A stretch of 63,694 nt of DNA, the filler included. It is 3 parts of 3 records of this genome, joined end to end, with 100 filler letters (N's around TTAATTAATTAA, not from the genome) between each part and the next. Parts side by side here need not be neighbours in the genome. Positions count along the whole stretch, not along the records: positions 1 to 23,211 come from DRR378314_96; 2 more parts are not named here. One strand, 5' to 3'. A program made the position numbers and the translations under genes. This document shows, piece after piece, positions 1-34,448 of the stretch. Numbering within the stretch: position 1 is the stretch's first letter; each line of letters begins with the position of its first letter. The notes under the pieces were generated by a model, which was not told where the DNA came from, ran no database searches, and was given only the letters and a program-made list of their open reading frames with translations.

Positions 1-28
1 GTCCCTGGTTCGAGCCCAGGTGGGACCA
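1..28 (+). tRNA. 3' end of a tRNA gene (or its att-site duplicate): T-arm, acceptor 3' strand and discriminator; CCA not encoded; isotype not determinable from this fragment (resembles Flavobacteriaceae CAT-anticodon tRNAs)
   Basis: CCTGG-TTCGAGC-CCAGG T-arm at 4-20, then TGGGACC + A, followed by CTA rather than CCA; truncated by the contig start. Confidence 0.85.
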
Positions 29-39
29 CTAGTAAAATC

Positions 40-14207: not shown

Positions 14208-14915
14208 ATGATGAGAACAGTATTGATCACCATGGTGATAACAATGATTGCCATGAACAGTATTTGGGCAAGAAAAGGTGTTTTTGGGAAAATGGAATCC
14301 ATTGAGGAAATTCAGGAATTGGATGTGTCTGGCCCAAAGGGAGAAGACCTTTATTTGGCTTACAGAACTTCTAGCAGGTTTTTTATAGCAGGTCTTTATT
14401 TTAAAGATCATGGTTATGTTCTTGGTATAAGGGGCCAGTATAATTCATATTATCCACTGGATACCACACGTATTGCGCAACTTCAAGAAGCAGGGCAATT
14501 GCCAAATCCAATGCCGGCGTATGATATTCCTTGGAAGGAATATGCTTTTGGCTATTCGGGCTGGTTAATTTTACCGTTACTTTTTTGGAGATTGTTGCTC
14601 TTTTTTAAAAACTTGGGGGACGATACTACGGACAGGAAAAACCTAAATGATATTCCGGAATGGAATTATAATATGGGACTAAAGAACTATAACCCTAAAA
14701 AAGGACGGCCAGATTATAGAAGTGCCTTTAAATTATTTAAAAAGGCTGCCGAGCAAGGTCATATAGAAGCATTATATAATACCGGGATAATGTTGTGCAA
14801 AGGTCAGGGAATAGAACAAGATCTGGCTCTTGGTTATAAATATCTTACCATGGCGGAACAAAAAGGCCATAGGGAGTCGGCTATTGTAATAAAAAAACTT
14901 CAGGAATTAAATTAA
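14208..14915 (+). CDS. Membrane protein with an exported N-terminal domain and C-terminal Sel1-like repeat
   Basis: Signal peptide, TM at ~aa 115-133, DYRSAFKLFKKAAEQGHIEALYNTGIMLCKGQGIEQD. Confidence 0.8.
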   Translation: MMRTVLITMVITMIAMNSIWARKGVFGKMESIEEIQELDVSGPKGEDLYLAYRTSSRFFIAGLYFKDHGYVLGIRGQYNSYYPLDTTRIAQLQEAGQLPNPMPAYDIPWKEYAFGYSGWLILPLLFWRLLLFFKNLGDDTTDRKNLNDIPEWNYNMGLKNYNPKKGRPDYRSAFKLFKKAAEQGHIEALYNTGIMLCKGQGIEQDLALGYKYLTMAEQKGHRESAIVIKKLQELN

Positions 14916-14925
14916 AATAGAACTA

Positions 14926-16302
14926 GTGAAAATAGAATTAAAACACATAATCGCACATTACGAAGCATTTATTCCTCTGTTGGATCTTATAAAACAAAAT
15001 AATGGAACGGCAATGCTCATAGGTGGAGCTGTAATAGATGGTATTAATAAAATTGAAATTAAGGATGTAGATATTGAGGTTTACGGCCTGCAGTACGAAG
15101 AAATCCACAAGCTGCTGGCACAGCTAAATTTATCTTCAAATATAGTTGGTAAGGCTTTTGGCGTTTTAAAAACAGTGATTCAAGATATAGAAATAGATTT
15201 GTCCGTGCCCAGACGTGAAAATAAGGTAGGTATAGGGCATAAGGGTTTTGAGGTAGAATTGGATATGGCTATGACCCCACTAGAAGCAGGTAGACGTAGG
15301 GATCTCACTATAAATAGTATGTACTTAAACATGCATAATGGAGAATTGGTAGACCCATTTAATGGCTTGGATGACCTGCAGAACGGTATACTTAGGGCAA
15401 CAGATTATAATACGTTTGTAGAAGATCCATTGCGCGTTTTGCGAATAATGCAATTATTACCCAGAAAAGGCACTAGCGTTGAAAAGGAGACCATTGCGTT
15501 GTGCCAGAAAATGACTGATGAATTTTATGAACTTCCTGCAGAACGCGTATTTTCGGAGTGGGAAAAATTATTGTTGAAAGCTGATAAACCTTCAATGGGA
15601 TTGCAATTTTTGAGAGATTGTGGTTGGTTAAAACACTTTCCGGAGCTCAATGATTTAATAGGATGCCCTCAAAATCCAATTTGGCACCCGGAGGGAGATG
15701 TATGGGTACATACTTGTATGGTAATTGACCAAGCAGCTAAACTAAGGGACCAATTGCCCAATAGTGATTGGCGTCTCGCTTTTATGTTCGGGGCATTATT
15801 GCACGATGTGGGAAAACCATCTACAACTACTCCAGATTTAAGGGCATACGGGCACGATGCTGCAGGAGTTCCAATTGCTGAGGCTTTTATGAAGCGCATG
15901 ACCAATAATAAAAGTTTAATAAAAAAAGTAATCACTATTGTTGGGCTTCATATGAGGCCTGGGCAATTATTCAATTCAGGTGCTAAAGAACCAGCTTGGA
16001 AAAGATTACATAACAAATGTAGACTTGATGTTTTGGGGTGGCAGAGTAAGGCAGATTCTGCCGGAAGAACAGGTAGGAACGTATTAAGTGATAAGCATGA
16101 AACTTCTGAGATGTGTTTCCAATTGTTTCAGAAATTTGGTGAAGAGGAAATCGCACCTTTGGTCCAAGGAAAAGATTTGATCGTGCTTGGGTTAAGACCA
16201 TCCAAAGAATTTGGAATAATTTTAGCGAAAAGCTATGAACTACAACTGGAGGGGGAGAAAAAAGAAGCAATACTCTTAAAAATAAAGAATAACACTATTT
16301 AG
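14926..16302 (+). CDS. cca: Class II tRNA nucleotidyltransferase (CCA-adding-like) fused to an HD phosphohydrolase
   Basis: IGGAV.D, KDVDIEV, RRDLTINS, EDPLRVLR, HPEGDVWVHT, LLHDVGK. Confidence 0.88.
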   Translation: MKIELKHIIAHYEAFIPLLDLIKQNNGTAMLIGGAVIDGINKIEIKDVDIEVYGLQYEEIHKLLAQLNLSSNIVGKAFGVLKTVIQDIEIDLSVPRRENKVGIGHKGFEVELDMAMTPLEAGRRRDLTINSMYLNMHNGELVDPFNGLDDLQNGILRATDYNTFVEDPLRVLRIMQLLPRKGTSVEKETIALCQKMTDEFYELPAERVFSEWEKLLLKADKPSMGLQFLRDCGWLKHFPELNDLIGCPQNPIWHPEGDVWVHTCMVIDQAAKLRDQLPNSDWRLAFMFGALLHDVGKPSTTTPDLRAYGHDAAGVPIAEAFMKRMTNNKSLIKKVITIVGLHMRPGQLFNSGAKEPAWKRLHNKCRLDVLGWQSKADSAGRTGRNVLSDKHETSEMCFQLFQKFGEEEIAPLVQGKDLIVLGLRPSKEFGIILAKSYELQLEGEKKEAILLKIKNNTI

Positions 16303-16387
16303 ATTGCCATATATATTCTATAAGAAGCGCAAAAGGGTGCTTTTTTACAGTAGAACAATTGCCCAACCTTAATCGAATACCTTAAAG

Positions 16388-16416
16388 AAAGAGTCCACAT
16401 TTATGGGCTCTTTTTT
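16388..16416 (+). terminator. Intrinsic terminator after the CCA-HD gene
   Basis: AAAGAGTCCA-CATTTA-TGGGCTCTTTTTT. Confidence 0.65.
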
Positions 16417-16526
16417 GTTTCCTATACTAAATACTTGGTTTTATACAACAAAAAAGTATGGAGGCGCCAACTGAAAATATATTTGAGCCATCAAATAATA
16501 TTAACAACATTCCAAAACTTGAAACC

Positions 16527-17141
16527 ATGAAAAATTTTAAAAACCCATTGGCCCTTTTATTAGTATTTACGATCCTATTCGTTAGCTGTGACAACAAGAA
16601 GCAGAAAGAATTGGCCAGGCAAAAGAATTATGAAATAGGAATATTGCAATCCAAACTTATGGATTACCAATCTTATCGCAATTTATTGGATTCGGAGTTG
16701 ATCAATCAACAGGCCAAATTAACAGACTATAGCCGGTATAAATTTCAATTGGAATCCAAGTTAGAAGATTACGAAAGTAAGGTAACAGCTTACCTCATGG
16801 ACCATAAAATGGCGGTGGCCTGTATAGTTGGGGGTTTGGGAGGTGCCAGTGTTTCCTTTGATACCACCAATGAGTTGTCCAGAGAGGTAAAAGACGTAGC
16901 AGGCGCCGTAACGGCCATCAGCGCTATCTACGCCGTCTTAAACTACTCAGAGGTTTCAGAGGTAGCTGATGTTTTGGTTCAGGCAGATAGCCATGTGAAA
17001 AACATAAAGAAGGAGATTGGAAAAGTAGATGCGTTAATTAAAAACACCAAGTATGATATTGGGGATAAAGAGCTGAAGTTGATTGCTATGAAGAAGAACA
17101 TAATTGCAACTAGGACTAGGATAGCACAATTAAATATTTAA
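16527..17141 (+). CDS. Coiled-coil lipoprotein with a central Gly/Ala hydrophobic hairpin
   Basis: Lipobox LFVSC; heptad-rich flanks; MAVACIVGGLGG...AGAVTAISAIYAV. Confidence 0.75.
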   Translation: MKNFKNPLALLLVFTILFVSCDNKKQKELARQKNYEIGILQSKLMDYQSYRNLLDSELINQQAKLTDYSRYKFQLESKLEDYESKVTAYLMDHKMAVACIVGGLGGASVSFDTTNELSREVKDVAGAVTAISAIYAVLNYSEVSEVADVLVQADSHVKNIKKEIGKVDALIKNTKYDIGDKELKLIAMKKNIIATRTRIAQLNI

Positions 17142-17186
17142 GAATCAATTCCTTGTTTTTTTATTAAAACCCAAGCCTGCATTTAA

Positions 17187-17567
17187 ATGAAATCAATTAT
17201 TCTTTATTCAGATTCTTCCACAACTACTTCGGTCCAATTTTTTGAATCGGGCCAAGTTTTAATTTGCAATGAGGAACTGGCGGGAACATATCTTCTTAGG
17301 GTGCCTAAGGAGGAAAAGCAAGATTTTTTTTATATTTTGTTTGAGGCATGGATCAATAATAAAAAAACCTACTTTCTTGGTTTTATAACTAGAAGATTTG
17401 GACTAAAGCTTCCTGAAAATCTAACAGATGATAAAATCAATGATAATATGATTCTTTGTTTAAAGAAATTGTTTTTAAACCGATTGGAAGACCCCTTTGA
17501 GGAAATTAAATCCTTTCTATTTAAAAAAGAAATTAAGTTTGGTTCAGAATATTGGACATCTCACTGA
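17187..17567 (+). CDS. Hypothetical protein
   Basis: 126-aa ATG ORF co-oriented with its neighbours. Confidence 0.55.
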   Translation: MKSIILYSDSSTTTSVQFFESGQVLICNEELAGTYLLRVPKEEKQDFFYILFEAWINNKKTYFLGFITRRFGLKLPENLTDDKINDNMILCLKKLFLNRLEDPFEEIKSFLFKKEIKFGSEYWTSH

Positions 17568-17685
17568 TTTTCGTAATCTGTTGAACTTAAGTATTTTATT
17601 AATATACTGATGCTGAATAGCTCATGTATTTTCATTTGATCAATCAAAATGGAAAGCCCTTCATTAAACCTACAACAACACAAAA

Positions 17686-18021
17686 ATGAAAAAACTATTT
17701 CTTGATGATGTAAGAACTTTATCGATGGTTTACCCAAATGACTTAGAATCTGATTGGGACATTGTTCGGAACTACCAAGATTTTGTGACCTATATTAAAA
17801 GAAATGGCCTGCCCCCTTTCATTAGTTTTGATAATGATTTAGGGCTGGACCAAGAAGGTCGTGTAGCTCCGGATGGTTATGCGGCCTCAAAATGGTTGGT
17901 ATATGAATCTGGATTGGATTTAAGGGGGTTAAGGTATCACGTGCACTCTGCAAATCCGGTGGCTGCAGAGCAAATTAGGGGATTATTTGATAATTATTTG
18001 AAATATCTGAAGGGTCAATAG
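17686..18021 (+). CDS. Cyclic-phosphate-processing receiver-like (cREC) domain protein
   Basis: LFLDDVR, ISFDNDLG, DGY..A.WLV and HSANP motifs in 111 aa. Confidence 0.8.
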   Translation: MKKLFLDDVRTLSMVYPNDLESDWDIVRNYQDFVTYIKRNGLPPFISFDNDLGLDQEGRVAPDGYAASKWLVYESGLDLRGLRYHVHSANPVAAEQIRGLFDNYLKYLKGQ

Positions 18022-23211: not shown

Positions 23212-23311
23212 NNNNNNNNNNNNNNNNNNNNNNNNNNNNNNNNNNNNNNNNNNNNTTAATTAATTAANNNNNNNNNNNNNNNNNNNNNNNNNNNNNNNNN
23301 NNNNNNNNNNN
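23212..23311. other. Artificial contig linker
   Basis: 44 N + TTAATTAATTAA (stops in six frames) + 44 N; GC content and gene style change across it. Confidence 0.97.
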
Positions 23312-23312
23312 T

Positions 23313-24500
23313 GTCGGGGCACGTTTGGTGATTGCCCAACCAGGCGACCATCGGGATCCTGAGCGCATTATCGAGCTGATCCAGCGGCAAGGCGTTACCA
23401 CGCTCAACTTTGTGCCCTCAATGCTCAAGGCTTTCCTGGCTTATCCTGATGTCAAGGCCAAAACACGGCTCAAGCATATTATGTGCGGTGGTGAGGCCGT
23501 TCCAGCGACGCTGCAGCAAGATGTAGCTGAGTGTCTTGATGGTGCCCACTTACATGATCTCTATGGCCCCACCGAAACCACTATTCACGTCACGCACTGG
23601 TGGTGCCGTGATGAAACCCATCGACAAATACCCATTGGGCGGCCTATCAGCGGTACTCGTACCTACGTTTTGGATGGTGGACTCAACCTGGTTCCACCGG
23701 GCGTGGCGGGAGAGCTGTACCTGGGGGGAGTAAGCCTGGCTCGTGGATATCTCAATCGCAGTGATCTAACGGCGGAGCGTTTTGTAGCGGATCCGTTCAC
23801 AGAGGGCGAACGCCTCTATCGCACTGGTGACCTAGTGCGTTGGCGTGATGATGGTCAGCTCGAATACCTGGGCCGCCTTGATCATCAAGTAAAAATCCGT
23901 GGCTTGCGGATCGAGCTAGGTGAGATCGAAGCCGAGCTATTAGCTCAGCCGGAAGTTCGCGAAGCGGTGGTGGTCGCCCAAGAAGGCCCCGGTGGTTCTA
24001 GGTTAGTCGCTTATGTAGTTCCCCAAGCCGACAGTGAACTCGACACCAGCTCACTACGTGAAGCGCTGGGTCAAAAGCTACCGGATTATATGGTGCCGGG
24101 CGTCGTGGTCACGCTCGAGGCACTGCCGCTGAATGCTAATGGCAAGGTGGATCGCAAGGCCCTGCCCGAGCCGGAGTTAGCCAGTGGCTCGCAGTATGAA
24201 CCGCCTCAAGATGAGGTGGAAGAAGCGCTAGCGGCGATCTGGTCCGAAGTGTTGGGGGGGGAACAGTTGGGCCGTCATGACAACTTCTTTGAGGTAGGAG
24301 GCCACTCGCTTACAGCAATTCAGATATCGGCACGTTTCACGCAGCGCTTTGGTGAGGCGTTGCCAGTACGGCTGATATTCGAATATCCGACGCTGGCGGA
24401 AATGGCAACACAAGTCGCGTTAAAACAGGTGAATGCCGATGGTGGTCGCGCGAAGCGGCTCTCCACTATGGATCAACTGCTCAACGAATTGGAAGGGTGA
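23313..24500 (+). CDS. NRPS, 5'-truncated: C-terminal half of an A domain, T domain and a COM-like tail
   Basis: [40 protein letters not shown]; ends [10 protein letters not shown]. Confidence 0.95.
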
Positions 24501-24503
24501 AAC

Positions 24504-27500
24504 ATGGAATTGGACGAAAGAAAGATTGCTCAACGTTTTGCAGAACTAAAGCTCGATGCGCAGCGAAGTTTTCTGAATAAGCTGAGAAGTAGTGGCATCG
24601 ATTTTCGTGAGCTTCCTATCGTGCCGGCTACCTGCGCTGAGCAATTTCCGTTGTCATATTCGCAGCGTAGCTTATGGCTGACATGGCAACTTGACCCGGC
24701 AAGCCCTGCTTACAACATGCCCGGTGTGCTTCATTTGCAAGGCCCACTGGATGTTGCTGCATTCGAGTCGAGTGTGAATGACCTTGTGACGCGTCATGAA
24801 GTACTCCGCACAATATATCCTCAGAGCGAGAATGGAGAACCTCTGCAGGAGGTTCTCAGTGACTGGCGTGTTCCGGTATTACACGATGATTTACAGTACC
24901 ACGCCGAGTTAGGGCAGGAAAAAGAGCTACAGCGCCTTAGTGGCGAGTTCTCTCAGCGCCCGTTTGCGCTTGATGCTGAACCGCCATTCAGAATGGCAAT
25001 TTACCAGCTGAATACTAACCATCATGCGGTTGCCATTGTATTGCACCATATCGCTTGTGACGGTTGGTCGATTCAGTTGCTCATCGATGAGCTGTTCGAG
25101 CTTTACGAAGCCCGAATCCAACAACGTAATGCAGCACTACCATCGTTACCCATTCAGTTTGGTGACTATGCGATATGGCAGCGGAGTTGGTTTGAGGCTG
25201 GCGAAATGGAGCGGCAGCTAGACCACTGGCGCCAACGCTTGGGGGACTCGCACGCGCCTATCGATCTTCCTTTTGATCGCCCAAGGGGTTCTTTGGAAAC
25301 ATCGAAAGCCGGTCAGTGTCATGTTCAATTATCTCGTGAGGTGAGCCTGGGTATTCATCAGCTAGCCCGTGAGCATGGCGCTTCACTGTATATGGTGATG
25401 CTGTCACTGTTAAAGCTGACGCTACATCGCTTCAGTGGACAAAGTGACATAAGGGTAGGTTCTCCCAGTGCGAATCGAAACAGAGCTGAAACTCATGGTT
25501 TGATTGGTTATCTGCTCAATGTTCAAGTGCTGAGAACCTTATTAGATCCTACCAAGGGGTTTACCAGTTTATTAGGCGCCGTTAAAGAAACCGTGCTTGA
25601 TGCACAGGACTACCAGGATATTCCCTTCGATACTTTGGTAGAGGCGCTGCAGCCTGAGCGCCAGCCTAGCGTACATCCGTTATTTCAGGTCAAGTGTACT
25701 CAACAGAACGAGTTGGAAAGAGAAAAGAGCGTAGGTGACTTAAAGGTACATCTTGAAGAACTCAGCGGTGGTGATGCTCACTTCGATCTAAGCTTTGATT
25801 TTACCGATACTCCTGATGGAATTCGCTGTGTCTTCGCCTATGCGACGGCACTTTTTGACGCACAGACAATCAAGAGACTCGCCGGAGCACTACAAAGCCT
25901 GGCTGAGCAAGTGCTTAAAGAACCAAATGCACCGTTGGCATCGCTCGAAATCCCAGCCCCGACTTCGGCGCTTGCAGGCAAGTCAACCACATTTTCTTGC
26001 GGCAGCGTCACAAAGCTCTGGGATCAAGCCGTCGAAGAACATTCCCAACAACTTGCGATGCAAGATGAGCCGGATCATGGCATCACTTATGCCAGCCTGA
26101 ATGCTCGAGCCCAGCGTCTGGCACAAGCACTAATCGCAGAAGGCGTAGGCCCCGAGGTGCGTGTTGCCATTCACGCCGATCGTTCATGCGAGTACGTGCT
26201 GGGTATCCTCGCCGTACTCAAAGCGGGCGGGGCGTTTGTGCCGCTTGATCCACAACTGCCAGCGGAGCGCTTGGCCTATCAACTGGCTGACAGTGGCGCT
26301 CGTTTAATGTTGAGCAGTACGGCGTGCGACTGGAGCGGTGACGTTCAGGTAATGGCGCTGGCGTTTGCTAATGATATGCCGGCTGCAACTGAGCACGAAC
26401 TACCCGTCATCCATCCTCAGCAGACCGCCTATGTGATCTATACCTCTGGCTCTACGGGCAAGCCCAAGGGGGTGGCGGTAAGTCACGGTGCTCTGGCCAA
26501 TTACGTGCAGGGTGTTCTGGAGGCGCTGGCGCTACCAAAAGGTGCCCGCAACATGGCGATGGTGTCGACGGTGGCGGCAGATCTGGGCCATACCGTGCTG
26601 TTTGGTGCCTTGTGCACCGGGCGTACCTTGCATCTTATTTCCCCCGAGTGCGCCTTCGACCCGGATGCCTTTGCGGCTTATATGCGCGAACAGCAGGTGG
26701 ATGTGCTCAAAATTGTGCCTAGCCACCTGCGGGCGCTGCTGAGTGCGGCAACTCCGGCTGACGTGCTTCCGTACGAGCGCCTGATTCTGGGCGGCGAAGC
26801 GACCGACTGGGCGCTACTGGAACGTCTCACCGAACTCAAGCCAACCTGCCAGGTGCTTAATCACTACGGTCCTACGGAAACCACGGTAGGTATTCTCACC
26901 CAGCAAGCCGATATGGCCGATCAAGCTGCCAGCGGCGTGCCGATCGGCGCGCCGCTGGCCAATGCTCAGGCCTATGTACTCGATCCCTGGCTTAATCCGG
27001 TGCCGCAAGGCGTTGCTGGGGAGCTCTACTTGGGTGGCCCCGGGCTGGCTCACGGCTATCTACAGCGTCAGGGGCAAACGGCGGAACGTTTCGTCGCCAG
27101 CCCCTTCCATGCAGGCGAACGGCTCTATCGCAGCGGTGACCGGGTGCGCCAACTGGCCGATGGTAGCCTGGAGTGCCTTGGCCGTGCGGATGATCAGGTC
27201 AAGATTCGCGGTTATCGGGTGGAACCGAGCGAGATTGCTGCCCTGTTGCGCGATCAGCCTGATATTGCAGAAGCTGAAGTAATTGCACGGGAAAACGAAG
27301 AAGGCCGCGCACAACTGTACGCCTATGTGGTGATAGCCGCCGGGAGCGGCGTCGATGACGCCGCATTACTCGCGCGGCTTGGCGAGCGCGTGCCGGACTA
27401 TATGGTACCCAGCGCCATGGTGCGGTTGGATGCCTTACCGCTAACCGCCAATGGCAAGCTGGATCGCAAGGCGCTGCCCGAGCCGGTGCAAACCGGTAGT

Positions 27501-30500
27501 GGCAAAGCCTTTGAAGCTCCCCAGGGAGAAGCAGAGGAGGCGTTGGCAGCAGTCTGGGCCGACGTAATCGGCTGCGACCAGGTGGGACGTAATGACAACT
27601 TCTTCGAGCTGGGTGGCGACTCCATTCTCAGCCTGCAGATCGTCGCGCGCTCGCGCAAGCGTGGCTACAAGGTAACGCCCAAGCAGTTGATGGAAGGGCA
27701 GACTATTGCCGCCGTAGCGGCGATGGCCACTCCCTTGGCGGCTACCAACCCTAAACAAGTGGCTGTACCAGATAAGGTCGCCCCCTTCGCACTGCTGCCG
27801 GTACAGCGCTGGTTCTTCGAGCAGAACTTCGCCGAGCCACATCACTGGAATCAGTCGTTGATGCTGGAAGCGGCCAGTGATGTAGATGCCGCGCTGCTAC
27901 GGCGTGCCATTGAGGCAGTGGTAGATCACCATGGTGCCTTGCGGCTGCGCTATGAGCGCGTTGGCGATAGCTGGCAACAAGTCTATGGCAAGCTGGCTGG
28001 TGATCTCTTCGAGCACCTCGACCTGAGCGATCATGCAGATCTGGCGCAGGCTATCACCCAGGCCGCCGGCACTGCGCAACACAGCCTAAGCCTGGAGCGG
28101 CCGTTCCGTGCCATCTGGATGGAACTGGGAGGCGAGTATGGTGGGCGATTGCTGCTAGTAGCTCACCACCTAGTGGTAGACGGCGTCTCGTGGCGCGTGA
28201 TTCTCGACGACCTGCAAACGGCCTACACGCAGTTAAGTGCAGCAAAGGCGCTCGATCTGCCACCAGCCACCACCTCGCTTGATGAATGGGCGCGCGCCCT
28301 GGCCGACTACGCCACATCGGAGGCGTTGGCTGAGCAACGCCCCTATTGGGAAGGTCTTGTCAAAGAGCCGGAGCCTAGCCTACCGGCACAGAATCTCCTG
28401 GGCAGCAACACCGTTGCCGATACCGCATCACTTGCCGGCAGCTTGTCTACTGAGGCAACCATACAACTGCTGGGGCCAGTGCATAAAGCCTACCGCACCC
28501 AGGTGGATGATCTGCTCCTCACTGCACTATCGAGCGCCCTGTGCCAATGGGCGGAGCGAGACAGTGTACTAATCGAACTGGAAGGCCATGGCCGCGAAGA
28601 CCTGTTCGACGGTATCGATCTCAGTCGCAGCGTGGGCTGGTTCACCTCGCTCTACCCGGTTCGCCTGACGCCAGGTAATGCGGAACCGGGCTCGAGCCTA
28701 AAAGCCATCAAGGAGCAGCTTCGCCAAGTGCCCGACAAGGGGCTTGGCTACGGCGTGTTGCGCTATTTGAAAGAGGAACCCGCGCTGGTCGGCGGTGCCT
28801 ACCCCCAGGTCACCTTCAATTATCTAGGCCAGTTTGACCGCTCCCTGCAGGGCGATGCGGCCTGGCGGCTAGCCAAAGAGAGCACAGGGCAGCCACGCGC
28901 GCCGCAAAGTGAACGCCGTACCTGGATTGAGGTGGTGGCCTGGGTTCAGAAGGGCCAACTGCGCTTTGACTGGAATTACAGTCGTGAGATTCACAGCGAG
29001 GCAGCGATGCATGCCTTGCAAGCAAGCTTCCAAGCGCAACTAGAGGCACTTCTTGAACACTGTGCTAGCGGAGTTCGTGGCGCTACGCCATCGGACTTCC
29101 CGCTGGCGGGGCTGAGTCAAGGGCAACTGGACGATTTGAGGTTGGATGTCGCCAATGTTGAGGACATCTACCCGTTGGCGCCGATGCAGCAAGGGCTGCT
29201 ATTGCATACCCTGCTCAATCCGGGCGCGGGTATGTACATGATGCAGGATCGCTATCGGTTTGCTTCGCCGATTGATGTCAATGCTTTCGAGAAAGCATGG
29301 CAGCGAGTCGTCGAACGGTATGAGGTGCTACGTACAGGGTTTGTTTGGCGCACCGAAGAGATGCAGTTGCAAGTGGTGTATCGGCAAGCCCCTTCACCCG
29401 TGGAATATATCGATTGGCGCGGCATCGACGAGGATGAGGCCGATCGTCGCTTGTCGGAGTTATTGCGTCAGGAACTTGATGATGGCTTCAATCTGGAACG
29501 GCCACCACTGCTAAAGGTACGCCTTATTCAACTGGCGGAGAACCTGTTCTACGTCGTACAGAGTTTCCACCATATCCTGATGGATGCCTGGTGTCGTTCC
29601 CTGCTGCTCAGCGATTTTTTCCACTACTACGATGCCTATCGTCTCGGGACGAGTCACGAGTTGACGCAACCAAGGCCATATCGTGATTTTATTGCTTGGT
29701 TGCAGCAGCAGGATGCCAATGTGCTACGCAACTATTGGCAACATGAGCTTGAAGGTTTCGATGAGGTAACGCCGATTCCTTATCTTAAACCGCACGGTTC
29801 GCTCGACAGTGTTGCCACAGTGGCTGATGTATTCTCCTCGCTCTCCCACGATGAGAGTGCGGGACTACAGAGCGTTGCCCGACAGCATCAATTGACTATC
29901 AATACAATCGTACAAGGGGCATGGGCACTGCTGTTAGGGCGGCTTTCTCAGGTGGATGACATCCTATTCGGCGTGACAGTAGCTGGGCGTCCGCTAGAAC
30001 TGGAGGGCATACAGGAGACGATGGGGCTGTTTATCAACACGATTCCTCTACGTGTGTCAGCCCCTGCGCCGCAAACATCCGTCCTTGATTGGCTACAGGC
30101 GCTATTGGCGAAAAACCTGGAGATACGTCAATACGAGCACCTACCGTTAGTCGAAATTCAATCGTTGGGAGAGCGGTCACAAGCACGCAGCCTATTCGAT
30201 AGCCTCTTTGTATTCGAAAATGCGCCGATAGATGCCAGCATAATGGAGAAAATCCATGATCTTCATGTGTCTATCAAGGGCAACCGTACCCACACTAATT
30301 ATCCCTTGACCGTAGTGGTGGTGCCTGGCGAGCAGCTGATGCTGCAGCTCTCCTACGACGCCCGAAAGTTTGACGGCTCTGAGGTCGAGAGACTGCTCTC
30401 GGGCTTCCGTCAAATCCTCTGGCAAATTATTGACAGACCTGACGCTCCCTATCATGAATTGGAAATATTGCCGGTAGATGAGATAGAGGTGCAGCGGGCA

Positions 30501-33500
30501 CAGTGCAGTGGGCAGTCGGTTGCTTACCCCTTTGAGCGAGGCTATATCGGCTTGTTCCGTGAGCAAGTACGACAGCATCCACACCAAGTGGCCGTTCGCC
30601 ACCAGGGAGAGTCGCTCACTTATGATCGGCTAGAAGGCACCTCTAATCGCATTGCCCAGGCGCTGCGGCAAGCAGGGGTGAAGAAGGATGATGTCGTAGC
30701 CCTGCATGCCGAGCGTGGCTTGGCGTTACCGAGCATGATTCTGGGCACGTTTAAGGCTGGCGGTGCGTATCTAGCGCTGGATACCCGGCTTCCTGATCAG
30801 CGTATCGTCGATATGCTGGCGTCCAGCCAGGCATCAGTTCTGGTTGTCACCGCTGGGCAGACACAGCGTCTCGAAGCTGTGCTTGCATCCATGCCCAACC
30901 CGCCGCAGATGTTTGTGTTTGAGGAACTAGCCGTGGCGGAAGGGCTAGAGGGTGATATCACCGTACCGGTGCACCCTGATCAGGCTGCCTATGTCATCTA
31001 TACCTCTGGTTCCACCGGCGAACCCAAGGGTGTCGTCGTTAGCCATCGTGGCATGCTCAATAACCAGTTGAGTAAGGTTCCCTACCTGGATCTGTCGGCC
31101 AGCGATGTCATTGCCCAGACTGCAGCGCTGAGTTTCGATATCTCCGTCTGGCAAACGCTGGCGGGGCTGTTGTGTGGTGCTTGCATCGAGATCGTGCCTA
31201 ATGAGATTGCACGCGATCCCAGTGCGTTGCTCCCTTATGTGCGCGACAACGGCGTCACGGTACTGCAAAGCGTACCTGCAGTGATCCAGGGAATGTTGAA
31301 TACTGCCTCAGTCGACCTGCCAGCACTGCGCTGGCTGCTGCCCACGGGCGAAGCCTCCACGTCTGAGCTAGTGCGCCAATGGTTTGCGCGCTACCCGACG
31401 ATCCCATTGGTCAATGCCTATGGCCCTGCAGAATGTGCTGATGATGTATCCCTGCACTTACTGCGTAGCGACGATGACGAGCACGTAGCCGTGGTGCCAA
31501 TCGGTAAACCGGCCGACAACACCCAGTTAATCGTCCTCGACAATCAACTGAACCCACTACCAATAGGGGTGAGTGGCGAACTATATGTCGCCGGTGTCGG
31601 TGTTGGGCGGGGTTACCTGAATCAGCCGAAGCTGACGGCCGAGCGCTTCGTGCCCAACCCGTTTGCCGATGTGCCTGGGGAGCGGCTCTACCGGACAGGC
31701 GATCTGGCCTGCTATCGCACCGATGGGGCGCTTGAATACATCGGGCGCACCGATCAACAGGTCAAAATACGGGGCCAGCGCATTGAGTTGGGAGAGATAA
31801 CGTCTCGGTTGGTGGAGTTCGATGTAATACGAGAAGCGGTAGTGGTGGCCCAGGAAGGGCCAGGAGGAGCTAGGTTAGTGGCTTATGCCGTCGCCCAGCC
31901 ACATGAGTCGATTGATGCGACCGAGCTACGCGAACGCCTGGGGCAAGTATTGCCCGACTATATGGTGCCAAGTGTGGTGGTGATGCTCGATGCCTTGCCA
32001 CTAACGCCCAACGGCAAGGTGGATCGCAAGGCATTGCCCGAGCCTGACTTCGCTAGTAGCTCGCAATACGAGCCGCCCCAAGGTGAGATTGAAGAGACAC
32101 TAGCAGCGATTTGGAGTGAGGTGCTGGGTGTCGAGCTGGTAGGGCGCTACGACAACTTCTTCGAGTTAGGGGGGCATTCGCTGCTGGCACTGAGTGTGCT
32201 TGAGCGTATGCGGGTTCGAGGCCTGGAGTCTCAAGTACGGACGTTGTTCCAGTCGCCAGAACTAGCGGCCTTTGCCAAGGCGCTGTCCCTAGAATCTGAT
32301 AGGAAAAAACTGGTTGTACCGCCCAACAGGATTCCAGAGCATTGTCGGTCGATCCAGCCGGAGATGCTGACGCTGATCGATTTGGATATAGATGAAATCA
32401 GTCGCATAGAAGATGCAGTGTCAGGCGGGGCGATCAATATCCAGGATATCTACCCTCTGGCACCATTGCAGGAGGGCATCCTTTTCCATCACCGATTACA
32501 GCAAGAGGGTGACACTTATGTACTCGCTTGCCTGCTGGGTTTTGATAGTAAGGAACGACTTGAGCAGTTCGTTGCCGGTTTCAATCAACTTATTGCCCGT
32601 CACGATATTTTGCGCACTGCAGTACTCTGGGAAGGGCTTCATGAACCAGTGCAAGTAGTGTATCGGTACGCCTCCCTAGAGGTGGAATGGCTGGAAATGG
32701 AAGAAACCAGTGTTTCGTGCAGCGTTTCCGAGCGACTAAATGCTCATGTTGATCCTGAACATTATCGCATCGATGTACGCCAGGCGCCGATGGTGCGAGT
32801 TATTGCGGCACAAGATGCTGAGCAAGGACGATGGCTACTGCAACTGCCCAGCCACCACTTGGTGCTGGATCACACCACACTTGATCTGCTAGTGGACGAG
32901 ATTGCCCTAATCCAGCAAGGACGAGAAGGTGAGTTACCCAAACCGCTGCCATTCCGAAACTTCGTAGCACAGGCAAGGTTGGGAGTGAGTCAGACAGAGC
33001 ATGAAGCCTTCTTTAGAGAAAAATTGGGCGATGTTGAGGAGCCTACTGCTCCATTCGGATTACTGGATGTACGTGGCGATGGCAGTGGTATTGAGGAGAT
33101 TCGCTTACCACTGACAGCAGAACTGGCCCAACAAGTTCGACAGCAGGCACAGCGACATGGTGTCAGTACCGCTACCCTATTTCACCTAGCCTGGGCGCAA
33201 GTGCTGAGTAAAACGACCGGGCGGGACAACGTGGTGTTCGGCACCCTACTATTTGGCCGTATGCAAGGTAGTGAAGGCGCCGAAAGAGCACTTGGGATGT
33301 TCATTAACACGTTACCTATTCGTATTAGACTAGGTACTAACAGCGTGGGCGACTGTTTACGCCAGACCCATAGTGAGTTGGCCGAATTGTTGAACCATGA
33401 GCATGCTAGTCTCGGACTAGCACAGCGATGCAGCGGAGTAGGTGGAGGATCACCACTGTTCTCAACCTTATTGAACTATCGTTATAGTACTCTGGAGAGG

Positions 33501-34348
33501 GAGAATGCAACTAGCCGGGCGTGGGAAGGGATGAAAGCCCTGGGCAATCGAGGTCGTACTAACTACCCAATTGTGATGTCAGTAGACGACCTTGGGGAGG
33601 GGTTTCAACTAGTGGGGCAGGTTAGCCGCAAACTCGGGGCTCAGCGGTTGTGTGATTATATGTGTGCGGCACTGGTCGGCATTGTAAATAGTCTTCAAAA
33701 GGCGCCTCAGCAATCATTAAGTGACATAAGCCTGCTAGGAAAAGACGAACGGCAATTGTTGAGCGAGTGGGGCGAGAACTCACTCCAGCATCCCAGTGGT
33801 CAGCCAGTCCACCAAATGATTGAATGCCAAGCCATGAAGACGCCAGAGGCAATGGCATTGATCTTCTCAGAGCACCGTCTCAGCTACGGCGAGCTTAATA
33901 TTCGTGCCAACCGTTTAGCGCACTATTTGATTGGCTTGGGTGTGCGCCCTGAAACCCGGGTAGGTATTGCCGCAGAGCGTTCCATTGAGATGGTGGTGGG
34001 GCTTCTGGCTATTCTTAAGGCGGGAGGCGCCTATGTGCCGCTAGACTCTGAGTATCCCATGGAGCGGTTGGCCTTTATCGTCGAAGATAGTGGCATTGAG
34101 CTGCTGCTGACTCAGCATCACTTGCGCGAGTCATTGCCAGTAGCTGATAGCCTAAGCGTTGTTGAGTTGGATCGTCTGGATGTGGCACATCACGCCTCTA
34201 TCAATCCAAAGGTGGCGATCCATGGGGAGCATCTTGCTTATGTGATCTATACCTCAGGCTCCACCGGGCGGCCTAAAGGTGCCGCTATCCGCCATGATGC
34301 CTTGACCAATTGCATGGCCTGGATGCAGGAGACCTACCAGCTCACCGA
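24504..34348 (+). CDS. NRPS, 3'-truncated: C-A(Asp)-T-E-C-A(Dab)-T-dual E/C-A(partial); probably siderophore-type
   Basis: HHIACDG; A1 ADLGHT/VLKIV/NHYGPTETTVG; T GGDS; E HHLVVDGVSW + EGHGRE; C HHILMDAWCRS; A2 FDISVWQ/PTGEA/NAYGPAECADD; T GGHS; HHLVLDHTT; A3 YTSGSTG. Confidence 0.95.
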
Positions 34349-34448
34349 NNNNNNNNNNNNNNNNNNNNNNNNNNNNNNNNNNNNNNNNNNNNTTAATTAA
34401 TTAANNNNNNNNNNNNNNNNNNNNNNNNNNNNNNNNNNNNNNNNNNNN
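34349..34448. other. Artificial contig linker
   Basis: 44 N + TTAATTAATTAA + 44 N. Confidence 0.97.

Follow-up and report, generated by a model that had tools for sequence, protein, structure and literature searches.

A probable accessory CCA-adding enzyme on an Arenibacter-like island

The stretch of DNA analysed here, 63,694 nucleotides in length and made of three joined contigs (hereafter the window), carries on its first contig, contig A, a gene for a predicted CCA-adding enzyme of class II that ends in an HD phosphohydrolase domain (called here CCA-HD) and, further downstream, a gene for a small cyclic-phosphate processing receiver-like protein, cREC. We propose that CCA-HD is probably a second, horizontally acquired CCA-adding enzyme, belonging to a distinct mobile clade, lying on a tRNA-flanked Arenibacter-like island and working alone in tRNA 3'-end repair. 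The extra and horizontally acquired nature of the 458-amino acid (aa) protein is well supported at the sequence level by its position in a phylogenetic tree, by the rarity of the type, by the housekeeping copies that reside beside its relatives in the same genomes, by the spread of the clade across phyla and mobile contigs, and by the tRNA-bordered island on which it is found. A repair-type accessory enzyme appears likely; a two-gene module formed with cREC, as put forward in the first-pass annotation of this DNA, appears unlikely.

Domains and motifs of the CCA-HD protein

The translated gene matched the Pfam families PolyA_pol (3e-16, 60.4 bits for a cut-off of 23), PolyA_pol_RNAbd (5.6e-10) and HD (2.4e-6). 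The HD domain scored 28.2 bits for a cut-off of 22, and HDIG 28.3 bits for a cut-off of 27.6, with the metal-binding residues H...HD...H...D aligned; they can be read in the translation within WHPEGD...HT and LLHDVGK. The polymerase motifs were present as KDVDIE (DxD), RRRDLT (RRD) and EDPLR (EDxxR). The Pfam matches and the translation thus confirm the class II nucleotidyltransferase with DxD, RRD and EDxxR motifs and an HD domain that had been recognized at first pass. Motif A reads GGAVID, with an isoleucine in the place of the conserved arginine of GGxVRD, and is not canonical.

The segment PRRENKVGIGHKGF of CCA-HD aligned with the flexible loop of the housekeeping relatives. According to PMC10673834, this loop is absent in CC-adding enzymes, and a second motif, ERxxxExxxhh, separates CCA-adding from A-adding enzymes; the latter motif was found in CCA-HD as ERVFSEWEKLL. 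The top NCBIfam match was the multifunctional Cca family NF008137, with 183.2 bits for an equivalog cut-off of 451. The predicted activity of the protein is the addition of CCA to tRNA. The start of the gene is only 10 bp away from the preceding gene, which encodes a Sel1-repeat protein, and the two are probably co-transcribed. PADLOC returned nothing for the five genes located between 14208 and 18021 beyond one 14-bit match to a Cas3 HD domain.

Phylogeny and distribution

A family sample of 301 genomes was assembled around Maribacter zhoushanensis (G002), chosen as the centre since it carries a relative of CCA-HD. The protein matched 296 of the 301 genomes. Outside G002, all the matches (295 genomes) were at 29–33% identity and corresponded to open reading frames of 472–518 aa, the ordinary flavobacterial cca. 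When the search was performed at E <= 1e-100, a single genome out of 401 family genomes was retained, the centre G002, with no hit of this type in the remaining 400. G002, a Maribacter metagenome-assembled genome (G003) and a Marinoscillum metagenome-assembled genome (G004) each possessed two PolyA_pol genes, one of the housekeeping type and one of the accessory type, the latter showing 55–70% identity to CCA-HD.

A quick maximum-likelihood tree (IQ-TREE, LG+G4) was built from 82 rows chosen among 199 candidates. The flavobacterial housekeeping cca formed a clade of their own with 100% support and a branch of 1.47. CCA-HD was placed outside of it, in an accessory clade of 40 rows whose support was 100% and whose stem measured 0.65. 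The sister of the accessory clade (94% support) was composed of enzymes from Verrucomicrobiota, Lentisphaerota, Kiritimatiellota, Acidobacteriota and Nitrospirota. These sister-group relatives, at 40–44% identity, were the sole PolyA_pol gene in three of the five genomes tested and one of two such genes in the remaining two, the second gene being presumably pcnB. The close members of the accessory clade came from Flavobacteriaceae, Cytophagales, one planctomycete and one Acinetobacter, and viral or mobile contigs also carried clade relatives, with identities of 61% and 48%. The earlier suggestion of an extra, horizontally moving enzyme, different from the flavobacterial housekeeping cca, is therefore borne out by the tree, by the 29–33% identity to the housekeeping proteins, by the occurrence in one genome out of 401 and by the presence of two genes in all three genomes inspected for them.

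RNA-repair neighbours and proposed function

The neighbourhoods of 22 clade loci were compared: the window, L002, L003 and L004, 16 metagenome loci, and the viral loci L226 and L230. Nine of the 22 had neighbours involved in RNA-end processing (RtcB, PrfH, RlaP, a PNK-like kinase or a phosphoesterase). In the Maribacter loci L002 and L003, a divergent WYL/WCX regulator was followed by RtcB and the CCA enzyme, after which came a gene of 95 aa, another RtcB and an RF-1 protein resembling PrfH; the order in L090 was WYL, PrfH, RtcB, CCA enzyme and two RlaP genes. RtcB fragments were visible at the contig edges in L099 and L092; L097, L103 and L156 had an AAA_33 kinase near the clade CCA gene, and L101 a calcineurin-like phosphoesterase (Metallophos). 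PMC6514570 presents RtcB–PrfH cassettes that gather nucleotidyltransferase and TPR genes as RNA-repair systems, and PMC12776372 describes RlaP as a repair-linked nucleotidyltransferase. Among more distant viral CCA genes, RtcB or RlaP was adjoining in five of 20 loci (L229, L233, L234, L242 and L245).

A separate observation concerns L094, L097, L103 and L156, where DUF3228 and AAA_33 kinase genes recur beside the clade CCA enzymes on phage-like contigs with small open reading frames. This association may constitute a further repair cassette.

We propose that the HD domain of the enzyme would remove a 2',3'-cyclic phosphate or a 3'-phosphate from a damaged tRNA 3' end and that, after this healing step, the nucleotidyltransferase head would rebuild C-C-A, so that a single protein would suffice. 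It would provide an extra capacity to restore the acceptor end in the face of toxins that trim, cleave or extend it. The removal of 2',3'-cyclic phosphates by the HD domain of Cca is reported in PMC10673834, citing Yakunin 2004. Cells exposed to a toxin that extends the 3' ends of tRNA are described as being rescued when a class II CCA/HD enzyme is overexpressed (PMC11541572), toxins cleaving the tRNA acceptor region are described in PMC5737660 and PMC9071432, and phage-borne CCA enzymes have already been presented in print as repair factors (PMC7824862). If the clade is indeed dedicated to repair, it would offer mobile elements and their hosts a one-protein route to resist toxins acting on the tRNA acceptor end.

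Several observations weigh against this proposal. The RNA ligase, RtcB, kinase, PrfH, RlaP and WYL genes searched for with tblastn (E <= 0.01) were not found in the window, and the repair theme derives only from relatives at 46–70% identity. The equivalog cut-offs of NCBIfam were missed by far (183 versus 451 bits). The second, housekeeping cca in the genome hosting the island is presumed and was not seen. An isoleucine takes the place of the universal motif-A arginine, which according to a docking study probably binds the triphosphate, and the enzyme may polymerise weakly or in an altered manner. Lastly, the conservation of CCA-HD and cREC as a block in three Arenibacter genomes, together with their co-occurrence in G004, leaves room for some functional tie between the two proteins. 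The genes neighbouring CCA-HD in the window did not recur beside its relatives, where just weak Sel1/kinase similarities were observed in L006, L118, L100, L075 and L078.

The absence of an RNA-repair neighbour in the window is what would be expected if the gene were simply a redundant xenologue, a spare cca brought along by the island and without any particular part in conflict or repair, and such an origin would also agree with the nature of the nearest outgroup, the ordinary housekeeping cca of other phyla, and with polymerase and HD motifs that are standard with one exception. We nevertheless consider it unlikely. The clade has a long and fully supported stem and carries fixed changes (Ile or Val at position 37, Lys at position 181, and a short insert bearing His391 and Ser394), its distribution over phyla and mobile contigs is patchy, and RtcB, PrfH, RlaP or a kinase stands alongside the enzyme within the nine loci with repair neighbours mentioned above.

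The cREC gene and its relation to CCA-HD

The stand-alone receiver-like protein with LDD, DxD and HSAN motifs noted at first pass was confirmed as cREC, with a match far above the family cut-off (Table 1) and intact residues. The motifs were read as LFLDDVR, FDNDLG and HVHSANP. In an alignment of 33 bacterial and phage homologues, D49, D51, S88, N90 and P91 were invariant, and D7 and D8 were conserved in at least 90%. Iyer et al. 2021 predicted that cREC processes cyclic phosphates, with cyclic nucleotides derived from ADP-ribose as an alternative substrate (PMC7824862). The phosphoesterase activity on cyclic phosphates is a prediction, for which a literature search turned up no experimental paper.

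The location of CCA-HD among accessory genes 1.4 kb upstream of cREC was also correctly described (the gap is 1383 bp and the two genes are on the same strand), and the genes around both on contig A are accessory. The further claim, that CCA-HD and cREC are the two enzymes of a module for tRNA 3'-end repair in which cREC would open the 2',3'-cyclic phosphate and CCA-HD would rebuild the end, fared less well, and we regard it as improbable. It has some attraction. Judged from consecutive accession numbers, three Arenibacter genomes (sp. ARW7G5Y1, M-2 and F20364) retain a block composed of CCA-HD, the lipoprotein gene, one or two small genes and cREC, which is also present in the metagenome locus L089; the Marinoscillum genome G004 contains an accessory CCA gene and cREC on one contig, 27 kb apart; each family has an RtcB neighbour somewhere, CCA-HD in Maribacter and cREC in Marinoscillum (L224, where cREC is located between two RtcB genes); and the cyclic-phosphate processing predicted by Iyer et al. 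would fit the proposed step. However, the adjacency is confined to the single genus Arenibacter. The flanks fetched for the 21 other clade loci were devoid of cREC, and a CCA-type gene was present within 10 kb in just one of 28 viral cREC loci. The co-occurrence of the two genes in the 301 sampled genomes was null, with 13 cREC-positive genomes and one genome positive for the accessory enzyme, G002, which lacks cREC. In addition, a strong hairpin followed by a T-run comes after the CCA gene, then the gene of a predicted exported lipoprotein, and the step proposed for cREC would already be covered by the HD domain. The cREC domain of jumbo phage CBB forms part of a Nudix fusion beside Sir2 and NAD-salvage genes, a context that fits substrates derived from ADP-ribose.

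A broader version of this idea would see a dedicated mobile counter-toxin CCA/HD clade, marked by the exchange of the universal motif-A arginine for Ile or Val and by the gain of an invariant Lys181, which would travel in phages, islands and RtcB–PrfH–RlaP cassettes to restore tRNA 3' ends and would be teamed in Arenibacter with a stand-alone cREC phosphoesterase preparing the cyclic-phosphate ends. We hold it to be distinctly improbable.

We return to the reading in which CCA-HD acts alone. Taken together, the adjacency restricted to Arenibacter, the lack of co-occurrence, the varied contexts, the hairpin, the intervening genes and the redundancy with the HD domain suggest that cREC is most easily understood as a separate accessory passenger, probably transcribed in a unit of its own. 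Two of the 13 copies present in the family sample were broken, and the intact copies were 60–76% identical. No gene family was common to the 12 cREC neighbourhoods examined. The gene lay variously in a histidine operon or a restriction island, near a NIF phosphatase or a SpoU methylase, within a UPF0227 fusion that follows a WYL regulator, and between the two RtcB genes. On contig A, no NAD/ADP-ribose enzyme, RNA ligase or WYL regulator was found, the kinds of neighbour that Iyer et al. 2021 associate with cREC. The protein is a small predicted phosphoesterase, moving widely among Bacteroidota and phages and found in many contexts. The high conservation of this rare protein in unrelated contexts argues for a self-contained activity, and the survey warns against deriving a function from one adjacency.

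Three of the cREC loci deserve a description of their own. In the flavobacterial locus L214 (7394–9079), the cREC open reading frame lies within the histidine operon and overlaps both its hisF-like and its hisIE-like neighbours. In L223 (5843–7626), a UPF0227–cREC fusion comes directly after a WYL/WCX regulator. In L222 (7471–8327), UPF0227 and cREC are separate adjacent genes near type I restriction and GmrSD genes.

The motif-A signature of the clade

Within the accessory clade, the motif-A arginine was replaced by Ile, Val or Ser in all 130 sequences with a matchable motif (of 135 in total). Among the housekeeping relatives, 121 of the 123 sequences from other phyla retained it, as did all 32 of flavobacterial origin. 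In a docking study, this arginine probably binds the triphosphate of the incoming nucleoside triphosphate (NTP) (PMC12166844). The other polymerase motifs were retained in most of the 135 clade sequences: DxD in 131, RRD in 129 and [EQ]DPLR in 132. Just after motif D, Lys181 was present in 100% of the 135 sequences, the corresponding residue being Phe or Leu in 127 housekeeping sequences. The gain of Lys181 may offset the charge lost at motif A. The clade offers a natural experiment on the motif-A arginine, its members having lost a charge at position 37 and acquired one at position 181. The replacement of this triphosphate binder in every matchable clade sequence could mean that the chemistry has changed, with an inefficient CCA synthesis and mainly HD activity or the use of another nucleotide or RNA, but this is very unlikely given the retention of DxD, RRD and [EQ]DPLR, which points to a working NTP site, and the invariant lysine, which may compensate for the lost charge.

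No description of the accessory clade or of its motif-A signature was found in a literature search, outside of which lies Burroughs and Aravind 2016 (PMC5062991). Both genes of the window are already correctly named in public records.

Comparison with known systems

The enzyme of the window shares with the E. coli-type Cca (NF008137, its top NCBIfam match) the same three domains and the DxD, RRD, EDxxR and HD residues. It differs by its low score relative to that family, by the motif-A isoleucine and Lys181, and by being accessory and carried by an island. The housekeeping cca of Flavobacteriaceae have the same PolyA_pol and HD architecture and belong to the same host family, but they form a separate clade and occur in 296 of 301 genomes, as compared to one of 401 for the accessory type.

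The RtcB–PrfH (RFH) operons with nucleotidyltransferase, TPR and WYL genes described by Burroughs and Aravind 2019 (PMC6514570) are close in content to the loci L002, L003 and L090, inside which 70%-identical relatives of CCA-HD are found, and a gene of the TPR class (Sel1) directly precedes the enzyme of the window. Unlike these operons, the window has no RtcB, PrfH, RlaP or WYL gene. The nucleotidyltransferase of the RFH operons is described in that paper as uncharacterised and may not be this enzyme.

Jumbo-phage tRNA nucleotidyltransferases (PHROG 2244) were matched by the enzyme of the window at 215.8 bits, and the role proposed for them, the restoration of CCA ends in conflict, is similar (PMC7824862). 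The best catalogued ones are only 37–38% identical, however, and the copy of the window is on a chromosomal island. The cREC proteins of jumbo phages, as described by Iyer et al., have the same domain and conserved residues as that of the window, with about 40% identity. The cREC of phage CBB is different in that it forms the C-terminus of the Nudix fusion, with an RNA-ligase fragment also nearby, whereas that of the window is stand-alone. The mycobacterial class II CCA/HD enzyme is comparable since an extra dose of it rescues cells from a toxin that acts as a tRNA 3'-end nucleotidyltransferase (PMC11541572); it is the essential housekeeping copy, unlike the accessory enzyme of the window.

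Genes and signals between CCA-HD and cREC

The features of the window are listed in Table 1. The hairpin located just 3' of the CCA-HD gene had a predicted RNA folding energy of -15.9 kcal/mol with a z-score of -4.38, and none of 200 shuffled sequences folded equally well. It would argue against a co-transcription of CCA-HD and cREC.

Table 1. Features of the window, with positions counted along its whole length.
Feature	Position	Strand	Details
Contig A	1-23211		37.3% GC; bears the CCA-HD and cREC genes
tRNA 3' end (T-arm and acceptor strand, no encoded CCA), then hairpin with T-run	1-31	+	Read from the sequence
Sel1-repeat protein, 235 aa, two hydrophobic stretches	14208-14915	+	Pfam Sel1 7.7e-12; translation
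Accessory class II CCA-adding enzyme (predicted) with C-terminal HD phosphohydrolase domain, 458 aa	14926-16302	+	GTG start
Terminator-like hairpin, 13-bp stem then T-run	16385-16416	+	Just 3' of the CCA-HD gene
Lipoprotein-like protein with coiled coil, 204 aa if translated from the second Met	16527-17141	+	Open reading frame opens at 16458; signal-peptide-plus-Cys motif, translation
Orphan protein, 126 aa	17187-17567	+	4 relatives among 1.84 billion representatives
Stand-alone cREC protein, 111 aa	17686-18021	+	PF20274 cREC_REC, 78.2 bits for a cut-off of 27
Contig B	23312-34348		55.6% GC
Contig C	34449-63694		56.8% GC

No Pfam, PHROG or PADLOC family was assigned to the lipoprotein-like protein, whose 204-aa relatives were restricted to Arenibacter and metagenomes, and which by all appearances is outside any repair module. 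Between the window and L089, 12 substitutions were clustered in its gene, at 16542–16691.

The orphan 126-aa protein was equally without a Pfam, PHROG or PADLOC family. One of its four relatives was the C-terminus of a 388-aa protein, and the relatives had no Pfam family either. The structural model had a mean confidence score (pLDDT) of 85.1 and an N-terminal half made of four strands and a helix. A Foldseek search gave nothing at E <= 0.001, and the ESM Atlas contained nothing usable for either this protein or the lipoprotein-like one. The weak fold matches (Z of about 5) were with nucleic-acid binders, PUR-alpha, Whirly and PC4-like. A PUR-alpha-like assignment was discarded, as the best Z of 5.2, with a root-mean-square deviation of 2.9 over 59 residues, is below the meaningful level, and no claim is made.

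The Bacteroidetes -7 motif TAnnTTTG was not enriched (32 matches for 38.9 expected). Isolated matches at 16478, 17534 and 18223 can be taken as no more than leads.

Contig make-up and island context

The three contigs are joined by two N44-TTAATTAATTAA-N44 linkers at 23212–23311 and 34349–34448. The high-GC contigs matched genome G001 at 97% identity, and the segment 14000–19000 was unmatched. The proteins of contig A were 87–98% identical to those of named Arenibacter genomes. Because of this similarity, of the different GC content and of the failure of G001 to match the segment 14000–19000, contig A is read as Arenibacter-like DNA that was binned together with another organism.

The tRNA 3' end with which contig A begins is likely the left border of an integrative island. 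The contig opens inside the tRNA gene, and ARAGORN called no whole tRNA on it; an Rfam search of contig A called zero families. The left end (1–2389) continues beyond the tRNA fragment with HTH_17, HTH_36 and DnaC-like loader genes. L089 is a metagenome copy of the contig A region, 97.6% identical, and contains a tyrosine recombinase gene (16618–17373) just beyond the point that matches the right end of contig A. The region looks like an integrative island of roughly 24 kb. The 22-mer of the tRNA 3' end did not turn up a second time in either the window or L089, and the right border is thus undefined.

The divergence between L089 and the segment 6927–23077 of the window was mosaic: 4–8% at 7–12 kb and 0–0.5% at 12–19 kb, apart from 1.3% in the 16–17 kb bin, then 0.9–2.4% at 19–23 kb. 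Upstream of the Sel1 gene, the segment 3373–13657 is a signalling and envelope cluster with a PP2C phosphatase, a LytTR protein, two FHA proteins, an LpoB-like protein, DUF6175, and a chagasin-like I42 inhibitor adjoining a papain-family C1 peptidase. The cluster also contains a Ser/Thr kinase with WG repeats, for which the top PADLOC match was mad6 (193.6 bits), followed by PD-T4-6. Contig B begins (23325–24500) inside a gene that reads in translation as a non-ribosomal peptide synthetase, with what resembles the end of an adenylation domain and then a carrier domain.

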